Assembly: GCA_016182045.1 (NCBI GenBank)
Contig: JACOYE010000007.1
Location: forward strand, 34,121-98,120
DNA: 64,000 nucleotides
Source of the DNA: Candidatus Microgenomates bacterium
Lineage (GTDB): Bacteria > Patescibacteriota > Microgenomatia > Daviesbacterales > UBA10151
Direction: 5' to 3'
Position 1 is the stretch's first letter. Each line of letters starts with the position of its first letter. Positions 1,150-62,322 of the stretch are shown here, piece by piece. Made by a program: the position numbers and the translations under genes. Under the pieces are notes generated by a model, which saw only the letters and a program-made list of their open reading frames with translations, was not told the origin of the DNA and made no database searches.

Positions 1150-1167
1150 GTTTTTAGCTAACAGCTA

Positions 1168-1533
1168 TCAGCTAGCAGCTTTCAGCTTTTTAATAAGCCC
1201 TCCTATCATAGCACTTAATTCATCTACTTCTAGAAGAGCATTCTGTAAACTAGTCACAGAGGTCATTTTAAGACTAATTGCTATTTCTAGAGCAGCCAAT
1301 ACCTCATAAGCAGATCTCTGAGCCATCTTTAAAAATCTTATAAATTCTGCATCAGAACCTGCTCCTGATCCCTCGGCAATATTTAAAACAATACTTACAG
1401 TTGCTCTTCTTATTTGATCTACTAAACCAAATCGCTCAGTGTGGGGAAATTTTGAAGTTAATTCATATATAAAAGTTACAAACTTAATGGACCTTTGCCA
1501 AACAGTTAGTTTTCTAAATTTCTGAACATACAT
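1168..1533 (-). CDS. four-helix-bundle protein (23S rRNA intervening-sequence protein family)
   Basis: MYVQKFRKLTVWQ...LNIAEGSG pattern typical of TIGR02436-like proteins. Confidence 0.65.
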   Translation of the reverse strand: MYVQKFRKLTVWQRSIKFVTFIYELTSKFPHTERFGLVDQIRRATVSIVLNIAEGSGAGSDAEFIRFLKMAQRSAYEVLAALEIAISLKMTSVTSLQNALLEVDELSAMIGGLIKKLKAAS

Positions 1534-3062: not shown

Positions 3063-6000
3063 TTATTTATCTAAACCTAAATATTCATCCCAACTTTTGA
3101 TTTCTAAATCTTCCATTTTCTTAGAAACTAGGCTTGAAATTAACAGTTCTGCTGCTTGTAAGTTAGTCACTAAAGGTATACCTAAGTCTATACAATTTCT
3201 TCTGATAATATATCCATCAGTTTCTACTCTCTCAGATTTCGGCTCACTAATATTTATAGCCAGATCAATCTGACCTTTCTGTAAAAAGTCTAACACAGAA
3301 GGGTGTTTACCCTCAGATATTTTATACAGTCTGGTGTTGTTAACCTTCACATCTTTTAAGAATTTTGAGGTATGTTCTGTTGCATATATCTTAAAACCTA
3401 ATATTGCAAGCTGATTGGCAGACTCAAGTAAAGCTACTTTATTTATTTGCCCCCCAATTGACAAAAATACACTATTTTTAGGTATCTTAAATCCTGTGGC
3501 AAGCAAAGATTTAAGATAAGCTTCCCTTAGATCATCACCAAAACATGCCACTTCCCCAGTTGAGGACATCTCAACTCTAAGTCTTGGGTCAGCCCCTTTA
3601 ATTCTGTTAAAAGAAAACTGGGGAGCTTTCACTCCCACGTAATCTAAATCTATGGTCTTAAAATCACCAGTTATATTCTCTCCCAACATTACTCTTACTG
3701 CCATATCAACAAAATTATAACCTGTTACTTTTGACACAAACGGAAAGGAACGGGATGCACGAAGGTTTAACTCAATCACCAAAATCTTTAAATCTTTGGC
3801 TAAAAACTGAATATTAAATGGACCATTAATATTTAATTCGCGAAGTACTTTTTGGGTAGCATCCTTGATTTTTCTGACAGTTTTCAAATAGAGCTTTTGC
3901 GGAGGTAGGACAATGGTGGCATCACCAGAGTGGACTCCGGCATTTTCTATATGTTCCGTGATGGCATAAATGAGAAGCTGACCTTTTTTAGCGACTCCGT
4001 CAATTTCAATCTCTTTTGCGCCTTCTACAAACTTTGAGATTACCACTGGGTATTCTGAGGATACATTTGATGCTTGTTTCAGATATTTTTTTAGATCCGA
4101 TCCAGAATATGCTACATTCATGGCAGAACCTGACAAAACATAAGAGGGTCTTATTAAAACAGGATATCCTATTTTTTTGGCAAAAGTTAAAGCATCATCT
4201 ATTGTCTTTAAACTTTGCCATACAGGTTGTTCTATCCCCAACTTATCCAAAAGCTTGGAAAATTTGTTTCTATCTTCTGCCTTGTCAATACTTTCAGGTG
4301 AAGTACCTAATATCCGATATCTTGCTCTAAAACAATCCATGGCCAAATTATTTGAAACTTGGCCCCCAAAACCTAAAACCAGACTTGTATTTTGTTCCAT
4401 ATCATAGATATCACTTACTCGTTCAAATGTCAGTTCCTCAAAATACAACTTATCCGCAATATCATAATCTGTGGAGACTGTTTCCGGATTACAGTTAATC
4501 ATGATCGTCTGAAGACCCTTAGCCTTTAAAGTTTGAGCCGCAGTCACAGCACACCAGTCAAACTCCACAGATGATCCAATCCGATATGGCCCTGATCCTA
4601 AAACAATAGCTTTCTTACTATCCACTGTACCCTGTCCCCTGTCACCTATTTCAGATTCTTCTCCATGATATGTCAGATAAAGATAGTTAGTCTTGGCAGG
4701 AAACTCCCCTGCCAAAGTATCAATGTGTTTGACTTTGGGAACTATTCCATTCTTTTTTCTAAATTTTCTTAATTCCTCTTCAGTCATCTTGAATGTTTTA
4801 GCCAATAACTGATCTGAAAACCCCAATTTCTTAGCATCCATCACTAACTTGCTTGCCCCACGAAACTTTAGTGAAGTGGGGTTACTTGTTACTTGTCTCT
4901 TGTCACTTGGTAGATTTTTCTCAAAATCTACTATCTCTTTTATCTGATACAAAAACCAAGGATCAATTCCTGTTGCTTGATAGATACTATCTACAGATTC
5001 TCCTTTAACAAACCTTTGAGCAATGACAAAAAGCCGCTGGGTGGTGGGTAAAAGCTTGGTATCATCTATCCCATTTCCCAGTAACCCGTCTTGACCAGTC
5101 TCTAACATTCTGATTGCTTTTTGTAAACTTTCCGGAAAACTTCTACCAATTGCCATGACCTCCCCCACGCTTTTCATCTCAGAACCTATTTGCTCATAAG
5201 CTCCCACAAATTTTTGCAAGTCCCATCTGGGGATTTTAACCACAATATAGTCTAGGGAAGGTTCAAAAAAGGCAGAGGTAGATAAGGTGACACTATTTTT
5301 TAGATTTGGCAAACTATATCCTAAACCAATTTTGGCGGCAATATAGGCTAAGGGATAACCTGTGGCTTTGGAAGCTAAGGCTGATGAGCGAGAAAGTCTG
5401 GCATTAACCTCAATCACCCGGCAGTCGTTATTCTGGGGATTTAGGGCAAACTGGATATTACACTCCCCCACAATCCCCAAATGCTCAATAACTTTTAAAG
5501 ATAGCTTTCGCAAAAAATGATATTGATAATTGTTTAAGGTTTGAGATGGAGCAACCACAATACTTTCACCTGTATGTATACCAAGCGGATCCATATTTTC
5601 CATGTTACAAACAGTGATTTTGTTACCAGCTTTATCTCTGACCACTTCATATTCCACTTCTTTCCAATGTTTCAAATATTCCTCCACAGCAATTTGGGGG
5701 ACATGGGCTAATGCATTGGTAGCCATCCTGATCAATTCTTCTTTATTGTCAACCACCCCTGAACCCAAACCGCCCAGGGAAAAACCTGATCTAATTAGTA
5801 AGGGGTATCCTATTCTTTTTGAAATTTTTACAGATTCTTCGATAGTAGAAGCAAATCCCCCTTTCGGCACTTTAATATTAATCTTGGCAAGTTCTTTTGC
5901 AAAAAGCTCTCTGTCTTCTGTGATTTCGATTGATCTTACGGGGGTTCCTAAAACTTTTACACCATACTTCTTAAAGACTCCAGCTTTTTCGAGACTTAGC

Positions 6001-10549: not shown

Positions 10550-11623
10550 CTAAGTAATCTTCCCATTCTCTACCCTTAAAATCCTGGCTGAATCTAAAAA
10601 GGATTTGGGGATATTTTCTAATTCCACTGTGGCTATTATGGTTTGCTGTTTTCCTACTATTTCCACCACATGAGCACGATGTTTACTATCCAGTTCTGAG
10701 AAAATATCATCCAGTAAAAGTATTGGCCTTTTACCCAAAATTTTGGCCATATATTCCAACTGAGAGAGTTTAAAAGCCAAAGTGGCTGTTCTTTGCTCAC
10801 CCCTAGAACCATAATGGGCCAAGTTTCTACCATCCAGCAAAATTGCGAAATCATCCCGATGAGGTCCAATTAATGTTTGAGCTGCAGCCACCTCCCTACC
10901 ATTTGTTTCCATAAGTTTCTCCATACTAACTATGCTTGGTTTATACTCAAATGTAAACTCCCCCAAAGGTTTTTCCAATCCATCAATGAACTCAAAAAAT
11001 ACTTGTCTCTTATCACTAATCACTTTTCCCTTATCCACCAACTCTTTTGTCCAGTAATCCAGTTCATCCACCCTACTTTTTCCTTCCCTGATTCTTTTTA
11101 AAACCCTATTTCTGGCTACTAAAAACTGTTCATATGCTGTCAGAGCTTTCTTATAATCACTATCCACCTGGGCCAAGGCCAAATCCAGATGCCATCTTCT
11201 TAAAGATGGCGGTCCTGTCACCATATTTATATCCGAGGGATAAAAAATTACCGCCGGCAAATTACCTATAAAATCCAAAACCCTTCTTGAGATACCATTA
11301 ACTAAAACCTTCTTTCTAAAATTAACTTCCCCACTTCTGTTAAGAATAACTAAAAGTTCTGTGTCTCCGCCAGCTGGCGGATCAGTTAAGAATGCTTCTG
11401 CTCTACAAAACTTCTCTCCCTCCTTAATTAACTCATCCTCATTCTCAACTCTTAATGATTTAGTAATTGATAAAAGGTAGATTGCCTCCAAAAGATTGGA
11501 TTTGCCGGCAGCATTATTACCAACTAAAATGGTGGGGCGTTGGTCAAAATCCAAAGACAGGTTAGGATAATTACGAAAGTTTGTTAAATTAAGGCTCTTC
11601 AGAAACATAACCAAAATTTTCAA
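10550..11623 (-). CDS. recF: DNA replication and repair protein RecF
   Basis: Walker A GNNAAGKSNLLEA, LLLDDIFSELD signature. Confidence 0.9.
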   Translation of the reverse strand: MKILVMFLKSLNLTNFRNYPNLSLDFDQRPTILVGNNAAGKSNLLEAIYLLSITKSLRVENEDELIKEGEKFCRAEAFLTDPPAGGDTELLVILNRSGEVNFRKKVLVNGISRRVLDFIGNLPAVIFYPSDINMVTGPPSLRRWHLDLALAQVDSDYKKALTAYEQFLVARNRVLKRIREGKSRVDELDYWTKELVDKGKVISDKRQVFFEFIDGLEKPLGEFTFEYKPSIVSMEKLMETNGREVAAAQTLIGPHRDDFAILLDGRNLAHYGSRGEQRTATLAFKLSQLEYMAKILGKRPILLLDDIFSELDSKHRAHVVEIVGKQQTIIATVELENIPKSFLDSARILRVENGKIT

Positions 11624-11720
11624 TTACCAATAACCAATTTTCAATGAATTTACAATGTTTAAATGTTTGAAAATTTTAAAATTGGAATTTGATTGTAAAT
11701 TGAAAATTGTAAATTGTAAA

Positions 11721-13094
11721 TTACTTCCCTTCCCAGTGTCCCAACCCCAAAAATTCTCTGACATGGTACGGCAATTGTTCTTCCCTAAAAAATAGGCTTG
11801 GTTTAAGTCCAAATAACCCAATCAACATGATGATCGCCCCCAGTGCCATCAAAATCGGTGTGGTACCAAAAATATCTGCCAGCAGTCCCGCAAGAAGAAT
11901 CGGTAAAAGAGACAGTCCCGACATGGCTACTCCAAGAGTGGCAAAAACTTTGCCTCTGTCTTGCTGGGGAGTATTTTCCTGTAAGACTGTTTGAGATGGA
12001 ACCAAGATTGATACCATCACTATCCCCAACAAAAATGACACTACAACCAATACGGCAGATAGAGGGGGTTGATAAAAAAATGGTAATGGTTTGGGGCGAG
12101 GAAGATGCTGAATAGCTGGAACGATAATCGGGGCAATCCCCACCAAGAAAAACAGTAATCCCCCAAAAAGAATTGATCTTGCCACAACTATTCTTTTGAT
12201 TAATCTTTGACCGATTCTACCTAAAACTAATCCACCGATGACTATTCCTAAACCTAAAGGTATCACTAAAACGTATGAGGCATCTGTGGCAGTAATTTGT
12301 AAAGTTTTCTCAAAAAATGAGGGCATTAAAACTGCCAAAACCCCAATCAAAAGCTGAACCAAAGCCAAGATTACTACCGAGGTTAGTACCGACAACTTAC
12401 CTCGTATCAAGTGAATGGTCTCCAAAATTTCAAATAACCCTACCTCCTTTATGGTTGACAGATGTCTTTTTCTGATGGCCCAAATTAATTTTTTCCCCTG
12501 CATATCTGGTGCTGTCACAATGGAGGGAAAAATCAAGGAAAGTAAGAAGGCAAGGGATACAAGTGTCCCACCTAATCCAAAAACAAAATTAATGCCTAAA
12601 TGATTTATCAAAGGCCCTGCCAAAGCAAAACCTACCAAAAAACAGGAGAAAACTGTGCTGGAAAATATCGCATTGGCTGTTATTAGTTGATCCTTTTTGA
12701 CAATAATTGGAACTGCTGAGGCTTCAGCTGGAGTATAAAATTGCCCCAAAGCATTAACGAAAAAGGCAACAACAAGAATTGCCGGATAACTTTCTTTAAA
12801 AAATATCAGACTAAAGAAAGCCAAACTTAGCAAAAAATCAATCATCATGATAATTTTTTTTCGATCAGTGATATCAACTAAAACTCCTGAAAAAAGACCC
12901 AAAAGTAAGGCAGGAAGGTAGATGGCAAAAATAAGGGCTGAAACAGCGACTGATGAACCTGTTAATTGAAATACCCAGATAATTAAAGCAAAGTTTAATA
13001 AGTTATAGGAAAGCTGAACCAAAATTTGATTAATCCAAAGGTTTAAAAACCCCCGGTTTTTTATTACCGAGGTAAAACTGACTCTTGCGGTCAT
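11721..13094 (-). CDS. MFS transporter
   Basis: 457 aa, ~12 predicted TM segments. Confidence 0.7.
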   Translation of the reverse strand: MTARVSFTSVIKNRGFLNLWINQILVQLSYNLLNFALIIWVFQLTGSSVAVSALIFAIYLPALLLGLFSGVLVDITDRKKIIMMIDFLLSLAFFSLIFFKESYPAILVVAFFVNALGQFYTPAEASAVPIIVKKDQLITANAIFSSTVFSCFLVGFALAGPLINHLGINFVFGLGGTLVSLAFLLSLIFPSIVTAPDMQGKKLIWAIRKRHLSTIKEVGLFEILETIHLIRGKLSVLTSVVILALVQLLIGVLAVLMPSFFEKTLQITATDASYVLVIPLGLGIVIGGLVLGRIGQRLIKRIVVARSILFGGLLFFLVGIAPIIVPAIQHLPRPKPLPFFYQPPLSAVLVVVSFLLGIVMVSILVPSQTVLQENTPQQDRGKVFATLGVAMSGLSLLPILLAGLLADIFGTTPILMALGAIIMLIGLFGLKPSLFFREEQLPYHVREFLGLGHWEGK

Positions 13095-13099
13095 AACTG

Positions 13100-14032
13100 T
13101 CAGCTATTATACCCTTTTTGACAATTAGGGCAAAGGTATGTGCCTCGACCTCCTAATTGAATCTTCTTAATTTTCGTGCCACAAATTTTGCATGGATGTT
13201 TATCACGTCCATAGACATAAGCATAATCTAGAAAATAACCTTTATGGCCTTCAGCATCTACAAAATGAGCTCTGGTGGAACCTCCATATTTAATCCCATC
13301 TTTTAAAGATTTAATAATCCCTTTGTAAAGTTTTTTAAATTGTTCATCATTCAAATCTCTTACTCTTACTCGTGGGTCTAAACCTGCACTAAAACAAGCC
13401 TCATTAGAGTAAATATTCCCCACTCCAGAGACTACTGTTTGATCCATAGTAGCCACTTTTACAGGCATGGATTTATGTCTTAATAGGTTTTGTTTAAGAA
13501 TTTGCCAAGTAAATCCTCTTTCTAATGGCTCTGGTCCCAGATTTTTCAATGAACTGTCCACTGTAACCTGTCCCCTGTCCACTGCTTTAACCCATCCGAA
13601 CTTTCTTTGGTCATTAAAATACAAATGCGAACCATCTGAAAAACTGAATATAATCCTAGTATGCGCATTTGGCATTTTCCCCACCATATCTGGAGTAGGA
13701 TGCCCACCTACTAACCTTTGACCATCCTCATAAATTAATTGTCCAGTCATTTTTAAATGGAATAGTAGGGTAACAAAATTGTCATTCCCGCGTAGGCGGG
13801 AATCCAATTCCGAACGAGACTTTTTTAATTGGATCCCTGCATTCGCAGGGACGACGTCCACACCTAAATACTTAGCTTTTCTCCATATATTGAGTACTTT
13901 TTTACCCTCCACCAAATTTGGATTTCCAATGAAAGATTTAGCAGAATTTATTTGGATTTTGGTAATTTTTAACCCAACAATTTTCTTTTGTAACCCCAGT
14001 TTAATTGTTTCAACTTCAGGTAACTCCGGCAC
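13100..14032 (-). CDS. mutM: formamidopyrimidine-DNA glycosylase with in-frame palindromic-element insertion
   Basis: MPELPEVE N-terminus, C-terminal zinc finger CKICG...CPNCQ; ~30-aa insert between RKAKYL and LLFHLKMTG. Confidence 0.85.
   Translation of the reverse strand: MPELPEVETIKLGLQKKIVGLKITKIQINSAKSFIGNPNLVEGKKVLNIWRKAKYLGVDVVPANAGIQLKKSRSELDSRLRGNDNFVTLLFHLKMTGQLIYEDGQRLVGGHPTPDMVGKMPNAHTRIIFSFSDGSHLYFNDQRKFGWVKAVDRGQVTVDSSLKNLGPEPLERGFTWQILKQNLLRHKSMPVKVATMDQTVVSGVGNIYSNEACFSAGLDPRVRVRDLNDEQFKKLYKGIIKSLKDGIKYGGSTRAHFVDAEGHKGYFLDYAYVYGRDKHPCKICGTKIKKIQLGGRGTYLCPNCQKGYNS
13781..13855. repeat. ~75-bp palindromic element (family GTCATTCCCGC...GCGGGAATGAC), in-frame within mutM
   Basis: gtcattcccgcgtaggcgggaatccaatt...aattggatccctgcattcgcagggacgac; encodes VVPANAGIQLKKSRSELDSRLRGNDN. 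Confidence 0.8.
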
Positions 14033-19521: not shown

Positions 19522-20513
19522 CAGTGATGAACCCGTTTCTCTATCTTCACACCATCATTATCAACTGTCAAGGTTGTTACTTCACTTCCCCCTTCACCCT
19601 TTACCCTTACACCATCCAAATCAAACCACTTATCATCTCCTGTGATAGAAGAGACAGACACCAAACAATTCTCCAATTTACCAGTCACCAAATCATCAAC
19701 ACTCCATATTTTGGTATACCTTTTTTGAATTTGAGCATCTCCTGACCAACCCCTTGCTTCACAAAACCCTCCTATTGCTTTTGCTGCCACCGCTGCTAAA
19801 ATCCCTTCCTCAAATCCCCCACTGCCTATAATAAGATATACACCCTTTTTGTGGGTTGTAGGATCCATGAAAGATAAAATAGATGGCAAAAAATCTCCGG
19901 CTTTAATTAAAATTAAATTCACTCCAAATTTCTCACAAGCATTAATGTAGTGTGCATTTCTATCCCTGTCCATTACTACTACATTAATCTGGTGAGATTG
20001 AATCTTAAATGTGTCCACAACTTCAGCCAAATTTTCCTCAGGAGTTTTACTCATAGACAACTTTCCTTTAAGTTGGGGCGGGCCAAATAATTTATCCATA
20101 TAATCTGTATCATCAGGTGTTCTCATCAAACCTTTATGGGAAGAAACAGCTACAACAGATACAGCTCCGGGAGTGTTTAACTTAGCAGCTTTTGATCCTT
20201 CCACTACATCATTAACCATGTCCAGTTTTTTACTTCCTGATCCAAATGTACCCATCAAGGTAGGTAAAGCTTCACCATATTGGTGAACATGTTTTCTGCC
20301 CTCAGAACCCACTATTTCCAGGGTGAATGGGATATCAGTCAGAGAGGCTGCCATAGCATCTACACCAGCCTGATCTATTAATTTTTCTCTTTTAATAGAT
20401 TCTTCTTCAGTTAAAAGATCATCTGCAGTAAATCCTTGCTGCTGAATTAATCTCCAAACAGATAAAGCAGTCAACTCTGTGGCGCGGGTAATATGGTGTT
20501 TAACAGAATCCAT
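19521..20513 (-). CDS. glpX: fructose-1,6-bisphosphatase class II
   Basis: C-terminal LIKAGD...IIGSGGFEEGILAAVAAKAIGGFCEAR matches GlpX family. Confidence 0.75.
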   Translation of the reverse strand: MDSVKHHITRATELTALSVWRLIQQQGFTADDLLTEEESIKREKLIDQAGVDAMAASLTDIPFTLEIVGSEGRKHVHQYGEALPTLMGTFGSGSKKLDMVNDVVEGSKAAKLNTPGAVSVVAVSSHKGLMRTPDDTDYMDKLFGPPQLKGKLSMSKTPEENLAEVVDTFKIQSHQINVVVMDRDRNAHYINACEKFGVNLILIKAGDFLPSILSFMDPTTHKKGVYLIIGSGGFEEGILAAVAAKAIGGFCEARGWSGDAQIQKRYTKIWSVDDLVTGKLENCLVSVSSITGDDKWFDLDGVRVKGEGGSEVTTLTVDNDGVKIEKRVHH

Positions 20514-20528
20514 GAAGCGAAAATTACA

Positions 20529-21674
20529 CTACCCTACTGGTAAATTTTTGTCAACTAACTCCAAGATCTCTTTTTTAAATCTTTCTTTAGAAAAATTTTG
20601 GGCATTTTTTCGCAAAATTTCTGGATCAAATTTAGATGGATCAAATTTCTGTAAAGCATCCATTAAACTTTCCACAGTCACCATTCCTGAACCACCATAT
20701 AGAATGCCGGTCCTACCATCCACCACTGTTTCCAAAAATCCACCAGCTTTTGGGGCAATCACCAGGGTACCAGCGGCCATTGATTCCACAGGCACAATGC
20801 CAAAGTCTTCATCTTCTGAAGCCACAACGGTAGCTATAGCACCCGAATACAGCTTTGGTAATTCCTCATCACTTACCTGTCCTAAGAGTTCTATATGATT
20901 AAATTTGATATTTGATATTTGATGTTTGATATTGCTAAACTCTGGTCCTGCTCCCACCACTTTAAGTGGCAATCCCAACTTCCCACAGGCCTCAACTATC
21001 ACGCCTATCCCCTTTCCCCTAACTAATCTTCCTACTGAAAGATAGTAACCATCCTTTTTAGTCTTGAGATTTCTCTCCGCCTGACGGCGGATCGGAATGA
21101 CAGGGAGATTAACTGGAGGATAAATTACCACAGAATCTCTTCTATAAAACTTTTTAATTCTTGCCTGCACTTCTTTGGAATTTGCCACCAAAATATCGGG
21201 CCGCTGTGATGTTTCAAAATCATAAACTCGCAAAATTTGATTAGCTATTTCTCCTAAAATTTTGGTAATAGGATTTTTCTTATAACTAAAGGAGGTGGTG
21301 TAACCATATAAATATCTGGGAGGAGTATGTATATAGCTTATATGCAAGCTTTCAGGCTTGGTAATGACAGCTTTGGCAAAATAAATGCTACACGATGAGA
21401 TAACTAAGTCATATTCAGAAAGATCAAAACTTTCAAAGATTAAAGGAGCAAAAATTCTGAATGGGGAGATAAGTTTTGAAGCCAGTGGAATCTTTTGTAG
21501 CCAAGATGTTCTAATATCCCATTGTTTGATTCTTTCTGCATTGGGACCCAACTGATCGGGGTTGTAATAGGCAGTATACAAAGGAGCATTAGGAAAAATC
21601 TCATGGAGCACTTCTAATACACGTTCTGCCCCACCATATTCCCTTAAATAATCATGGACTAAAGCTACTCTCAC
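20529..21674 (-). CDS. glycosyltransferase family 4, carrying in-frame heptamer tandem repeat
   Basis: EDEDFGIVPVESMAAG GT4 motif; ISNIKHQISNIKFNHI encoded by repeat. Confidence 0.8.
   Translation of the reverse strand: MRVALVHDYLREYGGAERVLEVLHEIFPNAPLYTAYYNPDQLGPNAERIKQWDIRTSWLQKIPLASKLISPFRIFAPLIFESFDLSEYDLVISSCSIYFAKAVITKPESLHISYIHTPPRYLYGYTTSFSYKKNPITKILGEIANQILRVYDFETSQRPDILVANSKEVQARIKKFYRRDSVVIYPPVNLPVIPIRRQAERNLKTKKDGYYLSVGRLVRGKGIGVIVEACGKLGLPLKVVGAGPEFSNIKHQISNIKFNHIELLGQVSDEELPKLYSGAIATVVASEDEDFGIVPVESMAAGTLVIAPKAGGFLETVVDGRTGILYGGSGMVTVESLMDALQKFDPSKFDPEILRKNAQNFSKERFKKEILELVDKNLPVG
20893..20925. repeat. tandem heptanucleotide repeat (ATTTGAT)n inside glycosyltransferase gene
   Basis: atttgatatttgatatttgatgtttgatatt. 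Confidence 0.8.
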
Positions 21675-21692
21675 TAGCCCATTGTAGCAGAA

Positions 21693-21896
21693 TTAATCAC
21701 TCTTTTTCCCCATTTGTTTTTGAAGCATCTCCAGAGCGTTTTTCTTGGCATCCTCCTCAGTCATACCTTGAGATTCAGCCGCAGCTTTAAAGGTCTTATT
21801 GGTAATGGATTTGCCGTTTGGATCAACTCCGGCATTTCCTTGTCCCATATCATCATCCGGCATACCACAACCACAGTTATAACACATCGCTGTCAC
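21693..21896 (-). CDS. small Cys-rich hypothetical protein
   Basis: 67 aa, N-terminal CYNCGCGMPDDDMG cluster. Confidence 0.35.
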   Translation of the reverse strand: MTAMCYNCGCGMPDDDMGQGNAGVDPNGKSITNKTFKAAAESQGMTEEDAKKNALEMLQKQMGKKSD

Positions 21897-21919
21897 CTCC
21901 TTACTTTAATATAACAGAT

Positions 21920-22900
21920 TTAGGGGGATAAAAGATCTATTATTCTTGCAAGAAGCGATTGGGTCTCTTCCAACAAGATCCCTGTTTCTGCTGAGACATA
22001 TCCTGTTAGATTGGTACTGACCGGGATAAAACCTAACAACTTAAGGTGTTTTTTGGCTGGGATTTTATAGACTATCTGATCATTTCTTTCTTCCAGACTA
22101 ATTTCACTTTCCAGAATAGTCAACTCAGCTGACTCAGTTGCCTCTGGTTCTTCAGTAGGTGAGGCAGAAGGAGAAGCAGAAGCTGTTCCTTCAGGTGTGG
22201 GTGAGGCTGAAGGGCTACTCTCAGGAGTGGCAGAAGGTGTAGCATCCTGGAAAAACTTAGGCCCCAAGCCTTTTTTAAGATGAGCTCTTAACATATTCTG
22301 CACAGCATGGGCAGGCAAAACTGTTAATACTCTCTCTACTCCACCCTTAGTCATGATCAACTGATTGGTGGAAAGATCAATTCTTAAGGGAAATTTGGAA
22401 ATAGCTCTCAGTTCCTGCACCAGTTCAGGTTCTTCTGCAGATTCCGTGGCCTCATCTTCTACTTCATCTTCTTCGACTTCATCCTCTTCCTCTATTTCAG
22501 TTTTAATGATAAACTCATTCCCTTTTTGCTCAAATCTGGTTTTGGTATTACCTTGATAAACATCTATTCTTGTTCTATCTTCCCTAATTTCAGTCTTGAT
22601 CCGCTCGTCGGAAGTCCTGACTTCATGCCTGATTCTGTTCTCCTGAGAGCTACCCCTATTGGAATTATCATCCCTTTTCTCTTCTCTGTCTTTAGAAGAT
22701 CCTGATTTACCTGAATTTTCTGAATCACCTTTGGAAATTAAAATACCTGCCACCGCTCCTTCATCATACCTGACGCTAGTCTGGACATTACCCACTACCA
22801 CCAACCCCACAGCCACTAAGACAACTATGATAATGGGGATATGAACAATTCCCTTCTGACCCATAACTTTATGATAGTGATATAAAATGAATTTTGTCAA
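21920..22900 (-). CDS. hypothetical secreted protein with acidic (E/D) and PT/S-rich repeats
   Basis: N-terminal TM/signal, EEEDEVEEDEVEDE and SPSASPTPEG low-complexity. Confidence 0.4.
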   Translation of the reverse strand: MTKFILYHYHKVMGQKGIVHIPIIIVVLVAVGLVVVGNVQTSVRYDEGAVAGILISKGDSENSGKSGSSKDREEKRDDNSNRGSSQENRIRHEVRTSDERIKTEIREDRTRIDVYQGNTKTRFEQKGNEFIIKTEIEEEDEVEEDEVEDEATESAEEPELVQELRAISKFPLRIDLSTNQLIMTKGGVERVLTVLPAHAVQNMLRAHLKKGLGPKFFQDATPSATPESSPSASPTPEGTASASPSASPTEEPEATESAELTILESEISLEERNDQIVYKIPAKKHLKLLGFIPVSTNLTGYVSAETGILLEETQSLLARIIDLLSP

Positions 22901-23956
22901 CTAGAGGAAATTGAGAGTCTTATATAAAAAACCATATAATTTAAAAAGCTCCTTAATGTTTTGCCAGCTCAAGGGTCTCTTTGGTTGAACATGTTCGAAA
23001 AGATTGGTTAGGATAAATGCTCCAATTTGTTGTTTTGGCAAGGCCTGAGATAATTTGACAGATTCAACATAAGGCACATAATTATCTGACATATCATGCA
23101 GGATAAATAATTTGCCTTTAAAATCTGGTAAATGCTTTTGGGGATTATATCTTTGCAAAGCCTCTTTTTCTATTGATGGTAGATTGCTAAAAATATCTTT
23201 TATTTTGTTTTCATCATCAATCTCAAATATTTGCGAAGCCTGAGTGGCATGTTTTACTTCCAATAGTGTCTTGGTATGATTTCTGGCATCATCTGCCACC
23301 TTCCACTCTATCCTCTTACCATCCCTCTGATAAGTTTTGGTAGTCAAAGATAGAAGATAATCAAAAATATTAAACTGTCCCCCAAAAAAGACCAGAGCAT
23401 GTACTTTATCAGAAATTTCAGGCTGTGATGCAGCTACCAAAGCTGTGGATGAACCTACAGAAAATCCCACAAACGTTATTCTTTCAGAATCCGTTTGTGG
23501 TAAACCGGCAACATACTTAAAGCTTTCTAAAAAAGTCTCAGGTTCTTCAGGGAGAGATTGTCCTTTATCTAAAACCTCAAGACGTGGCCATAAAACCACA
23601 TAGCCTAATCTGGCCATAGTCTCACCAAAATGCCAAATGAGTGGTTTGTCATCTTCAGAAGTTTTAACTCCCATGGCCAGGATTACTGCTGGTTGGGGTT
23701 GTTGGGGCTTTTGGGGAATATACAGATCAGCCACCACCTTACCTCCGCCAGCTGGCGGATCAAATTCCACCCACTCATGTTGCGGGGACTGAGTGATAAG
23801 CCCTAATGGTTTAACAGGAATCTGAGGGAACTCCTCTGTAATAAAAAGAATGATTTTAAGATGAGTTAAGAGTTGTTTTTGAAAAATTACCACCAAAGCA
23901 AGTATTACCAAAAAAATAATAAGCAGTTTTTTCCTATTAGTTAAACTTTTCGCCAT
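22901..23956 (-). CDS. alpha/beta hydrolase (dienelactone-hydrolase-like), membrane anchored
   Basis: GFSVGSS nucleophile elbow. Confidence 0.55.
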   Translation of the reverse strand: MAKSLTNRKKLLIIFLVILALVVIFQKQLLTHLKIILFITEEFPQIPVKPLGLITQSPQHEWVEFDPPAGGGKVVADLYIPQKPQQPQPAVILAMGVKTSEDDKPLIWHFGETMARLGYVVLWPRLEVLDKGQSLPEEPETFLESFKYVAGLPQTDSERITFVGFSVGSSTALVAASQPEISDKVHALVFFGGQFNIFDYLLSLTTKTYQRDGKRIEWKVADDARNHTKTLLEVKHATQASQIFEIDDENKIKDIFSNLPSIEKEALQRYNPQKHLPDFKGKLFILHDMSDNYVPYVESVKLSQALPKQQIGAFILTNLFEHVQPKRPLSWQNIKELFKLYGFLYKTLNFL

Positions 23957-32551: not shown

Positions 32552-32639
32552 TTATACCATTGTATTAATATCTGTCAAATTAGTATGAGTCACTATTTTC
32601 TGATTTGTAATTTGTAAGCTAATATCCTATAATAATATT

Positions 32640-42357: not shown

Positions 42358-43422
42358 TCAATCCATAAAATAATCCAACTTCATAGCCTTTTTAACTTCT
42401 TCTAATGTTTTTTGGGCTTCTGATCGGGCTTTTTCAGTACCTTCTTTGAGGATCCGTTCGACAAGCTCAGGATCTCGCTCGAATCGAGCTCGACTTTTTC
42501 TTATTGGATCCAGGAAATTATTTAAAACTTTAACCAGAAACTTTTTTACCTCAATATCCCCCACCTGGCCTTTTGTATAGCGAGATTTGAGATTTGAGAT
42601 TTGAGATTTGAGATTTTCAGGACCAAAGGCATCTAAATAGATAAAAACGGGGTTGCCTTCAACTCTACCTGGATCAGTAGCATGTATTCTTTTAGGATCT
42701 GTATACATATTCATCACCTTTTTCTCCACTTCTCCAGCAGTATCTGAAAGATTAATCACATTCCCAGCAGACTTACTCATTTTGGCTTTGCCATCTGTTC
42801 CAGGTAAAATGCCTAAATCTTCTGGTACCAAAGCTTCCGGTACTGGAAAAACCTGACCAGACACCTCCGAGGTGGGCTTTGACTCCTCGGAGGTGGATTG
42901 AGAAGATTTACCATAAACTCTATTAAATTCCCTGGCAATTTCTCTGGTAATCTCGATATGCGAAACTTGATCCTTACCCACCGGTACTAAGTGGCTTCTC
43001 ACCATTAAAATATCTGCTGCCTGAAGCACCGGGTAACCTAAAAGCCCATAGGAGGGAATGGTGATATGTGCATCTCTCATCACATCTTTTAAGGTGGGCA
43101 TCCGTTCAAGTCTGGGGACGGTGGTTAAATTGCCAAAAATGATGGCCAGTTCTGCCACTTCAGCTATTTGAGATTGAACATAAATGGTGGCTTTCTCAGG
43201 ATCAATTCCGACGGAAAGATAATCCAATACCATCTGGTAAATATTTTCCTTAAGCTCTTGGGTATCTTTAAGCTCAGGTTTAGTAGTTAAGGTATGCAAA
43301 TCCGCAACAATAAAAAAGCACTCATATTCATCTTGCAACCTGACCCTATTTTTCAAAGACCCCACATAATGGCCTAAATGTAATTTTCCAGTTGGTCTGT
43401 CCCCTGTTAATATTCTTTTCAT
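42358..43422 (-). CDS. trpS: tryptophan--tRNA ligase with in-frame heptamer-repeat insertion
   Basis: GDRPTGKLHLGHYVG and KMSKS motifs; NLKSQISNLKSQISNLKS repeat. Confidence 0.9.
   Translation of the reverse strand: MKRILTGDRPTGKLHLGHYVGSLKNRVRLQDEYECFFIVADLHTLTTKPELKDTQELKENIYQMVLDYLSVGIDPEKATIYVQSQIAEVAELAIIFGNLTTVPRLERMPTLKDVMRDAHITIPSYGLLGYPVLQAADILMVRSHLVPVGKDQVSHIEITREIAREFNRVYGKSSQSTSEESKPTSEVSGQVFPVPEALVPEDLGILPGTDGKAKMSKSAGNVINLSDTAGEVEKKVMNMYTDPKRIHATDPGRVEGNPVFIYLDAFGPENLKSQISNLKSRYTKGQVGDIEVKKFLVKVLNNFLDPIRKSRARFERDPELVERILKEGTEKARSEAQKTLEEVKKAMKLDYFMD
42583..42617. repeat. tandem heptanucleotide repeat (GATTTGA)n inside trpS
   Basis: gatttgagatttgagatttgagatttga... Confidence 0.8.
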
Positions 43423-43676
43423 AAGTTTTTACTTTTATCAGTATCCTTTTTTAATTTCTCAATAATCCACATCCTTGCTAAAGTGGTGGGACCAATACCC
43501 AGATGATCTGCTTTCTGCCGCAGCTTTTGAATATCGTCAGATTCAAACCTAATGGTTAATGTATCAGTTTTATTTGCACGGTGTAAACCAACTTTTATAT
43601 CCTTACCGAAAACATCTATGGCATCATGTTTATCCCAAAAATCAGCCTCCTCTTCTAAGGTTTTAAACGGCTTCAT
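43419..43676 (-). CDS. brnA: BrnA-like antitoxin (second copy)
   Basis: LEEEADFWDKHD...IGPTTLARMWIIEKL, paralogous to 41715..42077. Confidence 0.6.
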   Translation of the reverse strand: MKPFKTLEEEADFWDKHDAIDVFGKDIKVGLHRANKTDTLTIRFESDDIQKLRQKADHLGIGPTTLARMWIIEKLKKDTDKSKNL

Positions 43677-43705
43677 TGGTTTGATAGATCCCTTTTTAAC
43701 AAATC

Positions 43706-44002
43706 TTATCTTAATTTTTCGCCTCCCTTAAAATTTTCCATATATAATAATTGTTCTTTTTTCTTGGTGTACCTTGCAGTCACAAGTCCGTATCTATTTT
43801 TCCCACTTCTTGGTCCAACTACCACAGTAATTAACCTGCCTTTATTCGTTTTTCCCACTAACAAACTTTTATCAGATCTCCCCTTTAAAATTAAATAATC
43901 CCCAGCTATAACCTCAAAAACTTCATCTATTGTTATGCTGTGCCTAGCTATATGCTCTGGTCTATCTTCCTCAATAATCAGCTCATCAACAGTAACATCC
44001 AT
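43706..44002 (-). CDS. brnT: BrnT-like (DUF497) toxin (second copy)
   Basis: EEDRPEHIARHSITIDEVFEV...RLITVV pattern. Confidence 0.55.
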   Translation of the reverse strand: MDVTVDELIIEEDRPEHIARHSITIDEVFEVIAGDYLILKGRSDKSLLVGKTNKGRLITVVVGPRSGKNRYGLVTARYTKKKEQLLYMENFKGGEKLR

Positions 44003-44065
44003 ATTGTACTACATTGTCTTACAAATATCAAGGGTTAAAATTCGTTTCGTAATTTTGATTATACT

Positions 44066-44389
44066 TTAAAATAATCCCTGATGTTTTAAAGAAATCCTTT
44101 CTCTACCCCTTCTTTCCTTTTCCAAGTTAAATAGTATCTCTGCTTGACGTACACTATATCTTGATCCATCAAAGATTGGTTCGCCTTCTTCTATCGCTGG
44201 AAGTAGAATAGGCTTTCCATAAAATTTATGTAACTCCATTCCCTCTGGGACTTCTGGAATATATGTTCCAGGAACAAACCGAGGTGCCGGCATTTTAGGC
44301 CGCGTTCTCCCTCTCTCCTGTCTTTCAAGCTTACGTTGTTCATGAATTTGCTGATTACGTTCAGATTTTTGAAATTCCATATTTATCAC
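44066..44389 (-). CDS. hypothetical protein
   Basis: 107 aa, basic. Confidence 0.35.
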   Translation of the reverse strand: MINMEFQKSERNQQIHEQRKLERQERGRTRPKMPAPRFVPGTYIPEVPEGMELHKFYGKPILLPAIEEGEPIFDGSRYSVRQAEILFNLEKERRGRERISLKHQGLF

Positions 44390-44691
44390 CTCCTCCTCAT
44401 TTTTTCTCTAATTAAAATCTCTGTTCCCATATTTTCTTCAAGCCTAATCGAAGCAAAAGCTTCAATTCTTCTTAGTAATCCGACATTGTGTTTTTCTAAA
44501 ATCCTCTTTACTCTACCTACTTCCCTAGAACTTAAAGATTCAGGATAAACAATACTGCCACTTCCTTTTCTGATTCTTTCCATCCCATCCATAATCGCTC
44601 TCACTACCCCACTAACTAAACTCTCATCCTCAAAAGGAAGATTATTACTTTCTCTTTTTGCTAATTCCTGTTGATATCTTTCTTTACTCAT
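44386..44691 (-). CDS. hypothetical protein
   Basis: 101 aa; ATGA overlap with downstream gene. Confidence 0.35.
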   Translation of the reverse strand: MSKERYQQELAKRESNNLPFEDESLVSGVVRAIMDGMERIRKGSGSIVYPESLSSREVGRVKRILEKHNVGLLRRIEAFASIRLEENMGTEILIREKMRRR

Positions 44692-44850
44692 AAGTTACAT
44701 CCTTTAAAATCTTTTAAGAAAATGCCTATGAGTAATTTATGAAGATCTAGAAGTTGTTTATAGCCAAACTAGCCCCTGTCCCGCCTCGGCGGAACCAGAG
44801 GTTCCTTTATTTATATTATTTCTATCTAGTCTTTCCATATTTTCCTTTAT

Positions 44851-45105
44851 TTAAACTACTTTAAACCTTCCTAGCTGTAACTCTTTTGATCCACGGGTTA
44901 CTGTGGCAATACCTACTTTTAATTCTTCAGCAATTTTGTGCTGAGGTATTCCAGCTTTCAATCTTTTTACTATCTGAAGCCTGGTAGGTATTTCTTGAAG
45001 TTCCTTTGGAGTTAAAATCCCCAAAAGAAAATCTTCCATCTCTTCCCTATTTTTAATGCTTAGTAACAAATCAATTAGTTCGTTTAATTGCTTATTCCTA
45101 ATCAT
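44851..45105 (-). CDS. TrpR-like YerC/YecD family DNA-binding protein
   Basis: IAEELKVGIATVTRGSKEL C-terminal HTH. Confidence 0.65.
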   Translation of the reverse strand: MIRNKQLNELIDLLLSIKNREEMEDFLLGILTPKELQEIPTRLQIVKRLKAGIPQHKIAEELKVGIATVTRGSKELQLGRFKVV

Positions 45106-45742
45106 TACGTATACTATTATACTAGTATGCTAGTAATTTGTCAAGTGTCGAATTTACCATTAAAAAATCCGCTTTCGCGGATCATGTCGCGGATCATGTC
45201 GTTGACCTCCTCCCCAGTTCCAACCATCTGGATCAAAGGATTTTCTCTACTCTAGGACTTGTCAACCTTACCTTTCTTCTCTACTTTTCCGAAGATTATC
45301 AAAAAAATTCCAAAAGCCATTATAATCAGTAATCCCGTCATCAAACCGATAAAGCGGTCATTAAAATCAATCATTTCTCCCCCTTATTTTGAAGTATAGC
45401 ACCAATCACCAGGATGATCAATCCGCTCAGTAACAAAGGAATATAACGTGTTAGTAGAATAGGTTCTCGAAGCTGAAATGTTTCAGGTAAGAAGAACGCT
45501 CCAGATGATCCTAAAATTACCCCCCTCAGCTATTGTTTTGAAAGCAGATGCGAAAAATAACCATTGACCTTTAGATAATTTTAGACTAGCTATCATATAC
45601 CGGCCTCTCCTCTCCTGCAACTTCCTTTCACTACTTCTAGTCTAACACAAATTCTTTCTCCCCAAAGAGGCTCACAACCATCAAAAAAGCCCCTGCTTAA
45701 ATAAGGGCTTAAGTCCCCCCAACCATACCAGGTCAAAGCTTT

Positions 45743-61389: not shown

Positions 61390-62322
61390 TCAAGATGTCA
61401 AATTTCCCAAATATTCCTCTGCATCCATGGTGGCTTTACAGCCCATCCCTGCTGCTGTAACAGCTTGTCTGTAATGAAAATCTGCCACATCTCCTGCCAC
61501 AAACACTCCTTCTACCTCAGTATGGGTTTCATTTACAACCTTCACATACCCTTTCTCATCTAATGGCAATTGTCCCTTTAAAAAGTCAGTATTGGGTTTA
61601 TGGCCTATGGCAATGAATACTCCATCCACATCCATAGTGTTAATCTTCCCAGTTTGAGTATTTTTTATTCTCACTCCTGTCACTTTATCTTGTCCTAAAA
61701 CTTCATCTACCACGCAGTTAAAGATAAATTTCACATTGGGTTTGGATTTTACCAACTCTATTAGTGCAGATTGGGCCCTAAGTTGATCTCTCCTGTGAAT
61801 AACAGTGACACTCTTACATAACCTGGAAAGAAACTGTGCCTCCCTCATGGCAGTATCCCCTCCCCCAACCACAATTACATTTTTATCTTTAAAAAAGAAT
61901 CCATCACAAACAGCACAGGCAGATACTCCCCGACCACGTAAGCGTTGTTCAGACTCCAAGCCTAACCACATAGCTGAGGCTCCTGTTGCCAGAATCAAGG
62001 TTATAGTTTGTAGGTTGTAGGTTTCAGTTTGAATCACAAAAGGGCGTTTTTTTAAATCTACAGATAAAACATCTTCATTAATAAATCTGGTATTAAATCT
62101 TTCAGCTTGCTTTCGCATCTTGTCCATAAGATCTGGACCTTGGATTCCTTCAGGAAAACCGGGAAAATCATCAACATCTGTTGTCAAAATCAGCTGCCCA
62201 CCCGCTTCTCTACCTGCTACTACCAAAGGATTTAAATTTCCTCTAGCAGCATAAATGGCTGCAGTTAAGCCTGCAGGACCTGAACCAATGATGATTAGTT
62301 TCTCAACTTGGGAATTTGTCAT
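61390..62322 (-). CDS. trxB: thioredoxin-disulfide reductase
   Basis: FAD GSGPAG, redox-active CAVCDG. Confidence 0.9.
   Translation of the reverse strand: MTNSQVEKLIIIGSGPAGLTAAIYAARGNLNPLVVAGREAGGQLILTTDVDDFPGFPEGIQGPDLMDKMRKQAERFNTRFINEDVLSVDLKKRPFVIQTETYNLQTITLILATGASAMWLGLESEQRLRGRGVSACAVCDGFFFKDKNVIVVGGGDTAMREAQFLSRLCKSVTVIHRRDQLRAQSALIELVKSKPNVKFIFNCVVDEVLGQDKVTGVRIKNTQTGKINTMDVDGVFIAIGHKPNTDFLKGQLPLDEKGYVKVVNETHTEVEGVFVAGDVADFHYRQAVTAAGMGCKATMDAEEYLGNLTS

Follow-up and report, generated by a model that had tools for sequence, protein, structure and literature searches.

The glycosyltransferase gene and its heptanucleotide array

The DNA analysed here is a 64,000-nt stretch (referred to below as the window) of contig JACOYE010000007.1 of a Candidatus Microgenomates bacterium. 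On its minus strand, an open reading frame (ORF) at 20529..21674 encodes a 381-aa glycosyltransferase (GT) of the GT4 family, within which Tandem Repeats Finder (TRF) detected a heptanucleotide array at 20903..20933, with the plus-strand unit ATTTGAT in 4.4 copies (91% matches). The plus-strand letters are ATTTGAT ATTTGAT ATTTGAT GTTTGAT ATT, read on the coding (minus) strand as AATATCA AACATCA AATATCA AATATCA AAT (coding-strand unit AAATATC). The longest perfect stretch comprises 21 nt, i.e., 3.0 units, and one imperfect unit adjoins it. The array codes for NIKHQISNIKF (residues 248-258), inside the segment FSNIKHQISNIKFNHIE, and begins at nucleotide 742 of the 1146-nt coding sequence, about 65% into the gene and not near its 5' end. 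No RNA family was found by Rfam at or close to the array. A second assembly (Logan, L001, derived from run SRR12113384) is identical to the window over 20454..23492, the array included.

Since 7 is not divisible by 3, a slip by one unit shifts the reading frame of the GT gene. In simulated copy-number changes, the loss or gain of one unit truncated the product at 258 or 260 aa, without the conserved C-terminal region carrying the motif EDEDFG (invariant across a 33-sequence GT alignment), while the addition of three units kept the frame. This arithmetic had been set out in a preliminary description of the DNA, and it holds. The description was also right about the existence of the repeat, which both TRF and the sequence confirm, although it placed it at 20893..20925, about 8-10 nt too far left, and about the encoded peptide in general, except that the first residue was given as I and is actually F. 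The likeness it saw to a repeat in trpS is real: the array there (GAGATTT, 5.0 copies, 42582..42616) has the coding-strand unit AAATCTC which, once rotated into register, is a single base away from the GT unit AAATATC.

The GT protein matches Pfam Glycos_transf_1 (PF00534; 9e-28, 97.3 bits against a gathering cutoff of 26.4). Its AlphaFold2 model has a predicted local distance difference test score (pLDDT) of 80 overall and 87-90 over the array segment, and a predicted template modelling score (pTM) of 0.82. In the model, the array segment forms a surface helix (H246-256) and a loop, followed by a strand (E261-265); in the C-terminal Rossmann domain, these three elements come after strand one. 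An ungapped alignment matches the region to the canonical helix-loop-strand of PDB 2f9f; the array thus takes the place of a standard surface element and does not bring in a new one. Foldseek gave a probability of 1.00 to MshA, BshA, PimA and tll1591, with SPS-like GT-B folds among the relatives, while NCBIfam returned only sub-threshold GT4 matches and no equivalog at cutoff. Judged by sequence and model, the protein is thus predicted to be a generic GT-B/GT4 enzyme with two Rossmann-like domains; with regard to its function, NCBIfam, a PDB sequence search and Foldseek all gave generic GT4 relatives only. The gene lies outside any glycan gene cluster and is conserved over the sampled orthologues; 313 relatives were confirmed in reference genomes. 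The protein is identical to an NCBI entry of a Candidatus Microgenomates bacterium, and its relatives are overwhelmingly from Candidatus Daviesbacteria. Upstream of the GT gene, on the same strand, lies an ORF of 326 aa (21920-22900) with an N-terminal hydrophobic segment, long low-complexity acidic and S/P/T/A-rich stretches, and period-12 and period-15 repeats (22153-22183 and 22455-22489), for which NCBIfam gave no family match.

Period-7 arrays in the window and in related genomes

Under a strict criterion, the window contains three period-7 arrays, compared with 0.0 in 20 order-2 Markov simulations, and no tandem arrays of periods 4-6 or 8-15. For comparison, the window was combined with 80 orthologous loci from species-representative genomes (1.42 Mb in total). 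In this set TRF reported 181 period-7 rows, compared with none in an order-3 Markov simulation, and the period spectrum is dominated by 7 and its multiples (period 7, 167; period 14, 56; period 21, 20; among 391 arrays). The arrays are short (median 31 nt) and 198 of 243 (81%) lie wholly within long ORFs which, given that about 91% of the sequence is coding, amounts to a mild but significant depletion (binomial p = 9e-7). The 198 in-ORF arrays have 118 distinct units and therefore do not represent a single dispersed element; the peptides that they encode are enriched in S, Q, N and K. After masking of the arrays there was no cryptic 7-periodicity (lag-7 value 0.2625, no excess), and therefore the arrays are discrete hotspots; sub-threshold quasi-repeats outside the masked arrays showed a 2-3-fold excess only.

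The shortness of the GT array (31 nt) could raise the suspicion of a chance pattern or an assembly artefact. This explanation, to which we give practically no weight, is refuted by the Markov nulls, which contain no period-7 arrays, by the identity of two independent assemblies, and by the presence of orthologous arrays in dozens of metagenome-assembled genomes (MAGs) originating from different studies and assemblers.

The phenomenon reaches beyond Daviesbacteria, since four arrays were also found in 21 kb of the Curtissbacteria locus L097; L100, a contig fetched via its homologue of tryptophanyl-tRNA synthetase (TrpRS), has two or three. Period-7 arrays were absent from 14 of the 80 loci (including L040, L041, L047, L058 and L060), some of the loci comprising only a few kb, and array density may differ between lineages. 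Locus L040 belongs to CP066688.1, a complete Daviesbacteria chromosome of 820 kb, and is free of arrays. Loci with an array at the GT site carry other arrays at a density of 1.64 per 10 kb, as compared with 1.42 (p = 0.35), which gives no sign that the state of the GT site tracks lineage-specific activity.

At a lower TRF threshold, about 11 period-7 arrays were distinguished in the window, seven of them in frame within conserved genes: carB (two arrays), fpg, a glpX-type fructose-1,6-bisphosphatase (FBPase) gene, the GT gene, trpS and a thioredoxin-reductase-like gene. Besides the GT array, these minus-strand arrays, located by TRF and reading frame, with the genes identified by Pfam, are: (i) the trpS array mentioned above (100% matches), encoding ENLKSQISNLKSR in the essential gene for tryptophan-tRNA ligase (42358..43422; Pfam tRNA-synt_1b, 4.6e-75); (ii) an ACTGTCC-type array in the interdomain linker of fpg (13553..13584; 4.6 copies, 76% matches), encoding AVDRGQVTVDS; (iii) two carB arrays, TCCCCTG-type (4621..4647; 3.9 copies) encoding IGDRGQGTVD and ACTTGTC-type (4884..4909; 3.7 copies) encoding PSDKRQVTS; (iv) a degenerate CTTCACC-type array of the FBPase gene (19585..19613; 4.0 copies), encoding GVRVKGEGGS; and (v) an AGGTTGT-type array of the thioredoxin-reductase-like gene trxB (61998..62023; 3.7 copies), encoding ETYNLQTITL. 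An AGCTATC array (1156..1187; 4.6 copies) extends over the stop codon and 3' end of an ORF of the 23S-rRNA-IVP family (Pfam) at 1168..1533; this minus-strand ORF, of the 23S-rRNA-intervening-sequence family, encodes a bAvd-like four-helix-bundle protein and adjoins a Fic/DOC-family gene (73-1149). Two further sites found by TRF are intergenic: a cluster of period-7 to period-11 arrays at 11621..11722 (CAATTAC, ATTGTAA in 4.4 copies, and others), between the recF-like and major facilitator superfamily genes, and a short array of ATTTGTA at 32603..32617 (2.1 copies), whose unit is one base from the ATTGTAA unit at 11692.

Counted by family over the sampled neighbourhood, arrays are most numerous in the GT genes (60 in 47 ORFs), followed by DNA polymerase I (Pol I)-like genes (43 in 33) and fpg (39 in 26). 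The GT gene shares its role as an array hotspot with others, and housekeeping genes are hit to the same extent. Among the strongest hotspots is the Pol I-like gene or stand-alone 5'-3' exonuclease, where arrays recur at two positions, near aa 125 and near aa 700 (L003, 3418-5646, and orthologues in 33 loci; L097, 14861-14893; L100, 14045-14076 and 14499-14530); this could matter if the period-7 bias stems from a property of a polymerase.

The orthologous GT site was delimited by the conserved anchors KVxGxGPE and FLG. Among the 66 orthologues caught by this anchor pattern, 38 have a best period of 7, with at least 13 unit families distributed by lineage: AAATATC, AAATCTC, GAATCTA, CTACCAA, GCTACCA, CTACAAC, GTAACCT, GCTGCAA, TGCAAAG, GCTAAAA, CAGCTTT, CCATAAA and TAATCGT. 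About half of the Daviesbacteria orthologues carry a heptameric segment of 15-18 aa at this site, and a short form of 13 aa without periodicity (LxxLKKxAGKNVE) is found in each of the 13 more distant orthologues that were examined. Array starts fall into two registers or more, some immediately following N-L-K and others L-K-K-L-A, which implies that arrays arose at the GT site more than once. A neighbour-joining tree of the GT proteins with the segment masked (55-77% identity), in which the short form is basal and at least two registers are readable, is too poorly resolved to separate a single origin with concerted evolution from repeated births.

The peptides encoded at the GT site differ wholly between lineages (e.g., NIKYQISN, TNYQLPTT, KFKVQSAK and LESRIKN). 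This bears on the idea that selection acts on a 7-residue repeating peptide, the DNA repeat being secondary: three units make one heptad, the segment is modelled as a helix, and heptads raise the activity of the E. coli enzyme NeuO (PMC3046976). Selection of this kind, however, cannot make 7-nt units identical across three reading frames, and the same DNA pattern also occurs in intergenic regions. With the nucleotide identity of the units and the intergenic arrays both against it, protein-level selection is effectively refuted and we consider it very improbable.

Longer segments at the GT site owe their length to GC-rich inserts, not to additional units. Such inserts, partly palindromic and in frame, were noticed at several array hotspots: at the GT site (about 10700-10860) in L005, L018, L019, L023, L039 and L048, in the fpg linker in L013, L014 and L040, and in the glpX hairpin in L020, L035 and L039. 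In L018, for instance, CCCGCTTCGCGAGGCGAGCC lies within the CTACCAA array; the peptide VILSEAKDL recurs in fpg, and glpX has PACRQGRREGE or longer inserts. In appearance they resemble minor dispersed repeats that the host genes accommodate without loss of frame, and would form a second repeat class using the same permissive loops.

Constant length is also seen at other hotspots. In most of the 61 fpg orthologues compared, the linker measures 33 aa, with an array or without, and the units within it include TTCGAAA, AATTGGA, ATTGACA, AATCGTT, AGTGCAA, AGTTCAA, CAACAGG and AGCTAAT. In L009, the glpX hairpin consists of a perfect array of four AAGGGGA units and equals the aperiodic forms in length. 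The trpS segment has 35 aa in 86 of 120 orthologues, and its array is therefore length-neutral. Over the same 18 trpS codons, both the window and L092 have a perfect (AAATCTC)x5; L094, the closest relative (85%), has a CAACTAC/AAACTAC quasi-array, and L095 has the degenerate AAATCTC AAATCAC AAATTAC.

One-unit deletions and the place of the array among clade-wide repeats

Copy-number variants were sought in the 90% clusters of GT proteins and their contigs. For the GT of the window organism, L001 was the only second contig and is identical, the 90% cluster of P0001 being single-membered, and none of the 80 species-representative GT orthologues is frameshifted. Variation was found in a population of RIFCSPLOWO2_01_FULL_39_12-type Daviesbacteria, whose GT orthologue (P0009) is 71% identical to the window GT. 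The gene of this type (P0009/L003) carries AAATATC in five or more copies at the site of the window array, which reaches the threshold of at least 5 copies for long units used in phasome practice (PhasomeIt; PMC6321876), and has a second array, GGTACAG AGTACAG GGTACAG GGTACAG. Exactly one AAATATC unit is missing from contig L082 (ENA ERZ27254763, 13.8 kb), and exactly one unit of the second, GGTACAG-type array from contig L084 (ERZ27254864); in both cases the GT gene is split. Aside from the deletions, nine copies of the gene (L082 and L084 compared with L083 and L085-L090) are near-identical, with 9 substitution columns in 1161 nt, and intact alleles are present on about 19 other contigs of the population. 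The AAATATC array occurs there with 4 or 5 units only; deletions were seen and no gains. Like the window tract, the L084 array has three perfect units and one imperfect unit, and a tract of that size can therefore slip.

The preliminary description had proposed a search for copy-number heterogeneity among strains, and its outcome is divided: variants exist in the 71%-identical orthologue (L082 and L084), and none was found in the two assemblies of the window strain. In the same population, two other array-bearing genes served as controls; no allele was broken at the array in the Pol I-like gene (13 contigs) or in a gene for a 214-aa protein (15 contigs). Two OFF alleles on about 21 GT contigs, compared with none on the 28 control contigs, do not make a statistically significant difference. 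A scan of JGI metagenomes with a two-gap pattern spanning both L003-type GT arrays returned one contig, with wild-type lengths, and four Curtissbacteria strains showed no copy-number difference at four arrays. One-unit slippage is thus real, yet too rare to make the arrays generally polymorphic, and the OFF alleles were found in the one gene where loss may be tolerated.

Two GT fragments, P0250 (221 aa) and P0252 (214 aa), also came under suspicion as possible OFF alleles; P0250 is ruled out, because it is truncated by a contig edge and has an open upstream frame. In the loci of the four Curtissbacteria strains (L096-L099), FtsH appears as two ORFs (316 and 348 aa) in L096, as a 595-aa protein in L097 and as a 674-aa protein in L098 and L099. 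Locus L097 is without one 125-nt and one 105-nt segment, and the differences among these loci at about 11060-13084, 12832 and 17597 involve no heptamer array.

Could the GT array be a dedicated contingency locus, in which selection keeps heptamer tracts in a GT4 gene for reversible switching of a surface glycan, e.g., for phage escape or host attachment? Glycosyltransferases are classic phase-variable genes (PMC6321876, PMC8437040), and here the unit is not a multiple of 3, a one-unit change creates a null allele, and two independent one-unit deletions were found in the two GT arrays of one population, with none in the Pol I-like and 214-aa controls. Moreover, the GT family is the richest in arrays, often has two per gene, and has its site occupied in about half of the orthologues. 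However, the window tract, with 3 perfect units and 4.4 copies, is under the cutoff of at least 5 copies (PMC6321876) and occupies a mid-gene (65%) position instead of the 5' end. Equally persistent arrays are present in fpg, the Pol I-like gene, trpS and carB, where ON/OFF switching cannot be adaptive. All 80 species representatives are ON, the changes seen are deletions only and their excess over the controls is not significant, and the conservation of the gene and its position outside glycan clusters point in the same direction. We therefore regard a dedicated device as unlikely. For the switch suggested in the preliminary description, this means that the arithmetic and the OFF alleles of the orthologue speak for it, while the arrays of housekeeping genes, the short tract and its mid-gene position speak against a device dedicated to the GT. 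That description had also held that a repeat in distant orthologues would count against the switch; the finding lies midway, with the site occupied in about half of the orthologues by differing units.

Our preferred reading, to which we assign a probability of roughly 0.55, is that the GT array is an ordinary member of a clade-wide set of coding heptanucleotide microsatellites, and that switching is a by-product and not the work of a dedicated contingency device. Arrays in Microgenomates (Daviesbacteria and Curtissbacteria) lie mostly within genes, in frame, at permissive codons for solvent-exposed loops, linkers or helix ends. A period-7-specific misalignment, by slipped strands or a transient template during replication or repair, is the putative step that forms and re-homogenises them. 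Purifying selection would then retain in-frame, loop-compatible states only, which would account for the S/Q/N/K-rich peptides, the near-constant length and the tolerance of arrays in trpS, carB and Pol I-like genes. A slip by one unit, presumably at a low rate, does occur in nature and yields null GT alleles such as those that reached assembly-level frequency in the related population. The GT array would accordingly be a local mutational hotspot able to turn the gene off and, in principle, back on, and the switching, as a by-product of a genome-wide process, would be visible only where loss of the gene is tolerated.

Four observations weigh against this reading. Firstly, the arrays are mostly length-neutral with respect to aperiodic orthologues, while plain slippage should alter length by 7-nt units; length neutrality suggests homogenisation in place, by templated substitutions at a 7-nt offset, over net insertion. 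Secondly, units are shared (with at most one mismatch, rotation and strand being ignored) in 38 of 201 pairs of different ORFs within genomes, while 5000 permutations averaged 14.3 such pairs and never exceeded 30, a test in which compositional and codon bias is only partly controlled. For example, AAAGTGC occurs at four loci in L070 (5990, 10573, 12460 and 20270), AAATTCG in the Pol I-like, GT and fpg genes of L050 (4450, 10610 and 13077), and L044 has one such pair (5689 and 10578); in the window, the pairs GT 20903/trpS 42582, fpg 13553/carB 4621 and 11692/32603 are one base apart. Thirdly, a 35-nt (AAATCTC)x5 array with near-identical flanks is present in the TrpRS genes of the window and L092, whose proteins are 77% identical. 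The array itself may thus have been conserved, exchanged or reached by convergence. The flanks of these arrays, in the window (42582-42616) and in L092 (a contig of ENA ERZ978390), are CCTGAAAATCTC...CGCTATACAAAA. Fourthly, two independent OFF alleles in about 21 contigs exceed the naive expectation for a neutral by-product, and could reflect selection for loss of the GT.

Local slippage explains neither length neutrality nor unit sharing, and a unit-specific or conversion-like mechanism is possible. Units might be written or spread by ectopic conversion, by a genome-specific binding or modification factor, or by templated addition in repair, and the arrays would then be the coding counterpart of dispersed families such as STRR of cyanobacteria, TAACTGA of Beggiatoaceae and GGGAATC of Xanthomonas. 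That units are common to unrelated genes of one genome far above the permutation expectation, that existing codons are overwritten at constant length, and that the 35-nt trpS array recurs with its flanks would all be expected of such a process; dispersed heptamer families of other phyla are likewise without an evident mechanism (PMC4679880). A single template, on the other hand, cannot explain 118 units in 198 arrays, usually with several different units per 20 kb. Array seeds are legible in aperiodic orthologues, such as AAATCTCAAAT in the trpS gene of L095, as local misalignment predicts. Compositional and codon bias is only partly controlled in the sharing signal, and no candidate enzyme emerged. 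On balance, we find the unit-specific explanation doubtful. A broader proposal, which we put forward only tentatively, is that Microgenomates possess a period-7-specific and largely length-preserving homogenisation process that time and again turns surface loops and linkers of ordinary proteins, those of essential enzymes included, into tandem heptamers, with a small set of genome-favoured units appearing across unlinked genes. If true, it would imply conversion between arrays or a trans-acting, unit-selective factor, i.e., an undescribed mutational mechanism, and would both diversify protein loops and seed frameshift switches in dispensable genes such as the GT gene.

Among the long simple repeats of many bacteria, those with 7-nt units are, to our knowledge, the most over-represented; no explanation of their origin is known to us, and studies of them have dealt almost only with intergenic regions. 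Nor do we know of phase variation documented in uncultured episymbiotic bacteria. The ultra-compact genomes of the Candidate Phyla Radiation (CPR) would force the heptamer process into coding sequence, where birth sites, effects on length, unit turnover and tolerance of frameshifts can therefore be read against protein alignments. Should length-neutral overwriting and genome-specific units hold genome-wide, they would point to a mechanism beyond simple slippage, and would identify a way in which protein loops are diversified and genes inactivated at random in these uncultured episymbiotic bacteria. Taken by itself, the GT array is moderately interesting; the clade-wide pattern, with its two unexplained properties, is more so. 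Those who annotate CPR MAGs should be prepared to meet real 7-nt frameshift alleles at arrays of this kind.

Neighbouring features and comparison with known systems

Further features of the window include an unusually strong bias of gene strand, about 54 of the 62 long ORFs (at least 120 aa) over the 64 kb lying on the minus strand, and a 2.3-kb region (43419-45742) without a long ORF. The latter is occupied by a series of short ORFs (84-107 aa), among them some that by eye look toxin-antitoxin-like or TrpR-like, and by a perfect 12-nt direct repeat (TCGCGGATCATG, 2.2 copies) at 45175-45201; Rfam gave no match to the region at E <= 0.1.

Our literature search, with most subscription journals outside its reach, returned no report of heptamer arrays in CPR, Patescibacteria or Microgenomates. 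Several known systems are nevertheless comparable. The closest mechanistic analogue for a switch is NeuO, the O-acetyltransferase of prophage CUS-3 of E. coli K1, which resembles the GT array in having a heptanucleotide repeat in the coding region of an enzyme that modifies a surface glycan. Its coding variable number tandem repeat is such that three units specify a 7-residue peptide and copy numbers that are not multiples of 3 are OFF (PMC3046976). The tract starts 2 nt after the start codon and is hypervariable, with 2 to 93 copies depending on the isolate; it forms a disordered N-terminal extension, the length of which tunes activity (PMC3046976). The GT array is internal (nucleotide 742 of 1146), has about 4 copies (3 perfect), replaces a helix and loop and is one of many; none of the defining features of NeuO (5'-terminal position, wide copy range and N-terminal extension) was found in it.

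The glycosyltransferases of the lipooligosaccharide (LOS) and capsular polysaccharide (CPS) loci of Campylobacter, Haemophilus and Neisseria are similar in that a frameshifting simple sequence repeat (SSR) in a GT ORF can give ON/OFF heterogeneity. Their phase-variable genes bear homopolymers or tetranucleotides above empirically validated lengths, belong to surface-structure loci and switch at rates above 1e-5. Contingency repeats would be expected mainly in surface, restriction-modification or dispensable genes; here, in contrast, trpS, carB, fpg, glpX and trxB carry arrays. Rickettsia palindromic elements are selfish, mobile palindromic sequences of about 100-150 bp that are inserted in frame into housekeeping proteins, at surface positions, and add length. 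Unlike them, the present arrays are tandem, span about 30 nt and mostly leave length unchanged; the GC-rich palindromic mini-inserts are the closer analogue of those elements.

As a phenomenon, the closest parallel is the excess of long heptanucleotide SSRs in many bacteria, for which polymerase slippage over about 7 nt was proposed (Mrazek, Guo and Shah 2007, as summarised in PMC4679880 and PMC4692102). It shares with the present arrays the specificity for period 7 and the multitude of units. The heptamers described in Xanthomonas, Nostoc, Burkholderia and other bacteria lie mainly between genes, with ORFs having fewer of them than expected (PMC4679880, PMC4692102). Of the arrays reported here, 81% are within ORFs, in genomes that are very compact, as is typical of CPR; they keep the frame, occupy conserved hotspots with units particular to each lineage, and largely have no effect on length. 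The dispersed heptamer families, i.e., STRR, TAACTGA (Beggiatoaceae and cyanobacteria) and GGGAATC/GGGGA(C/T)T (Xanthomonas and Nostoc), likewise form arrays of about 2-6 (or more) heptamers, usually about 4 units, at many loci. They have no known mechanism of spread, and the unit sharing within genomes observed in the present set resembles them. In any one genome, however, such a family has a single fixed heptamer or a few; the families are almost wholly intergenic and have been assigned a proposed role in regulation or G-quadruplex formation, whereas the arrays of the Microgenomates comprise many units per genome, are coding and are not G-rich.

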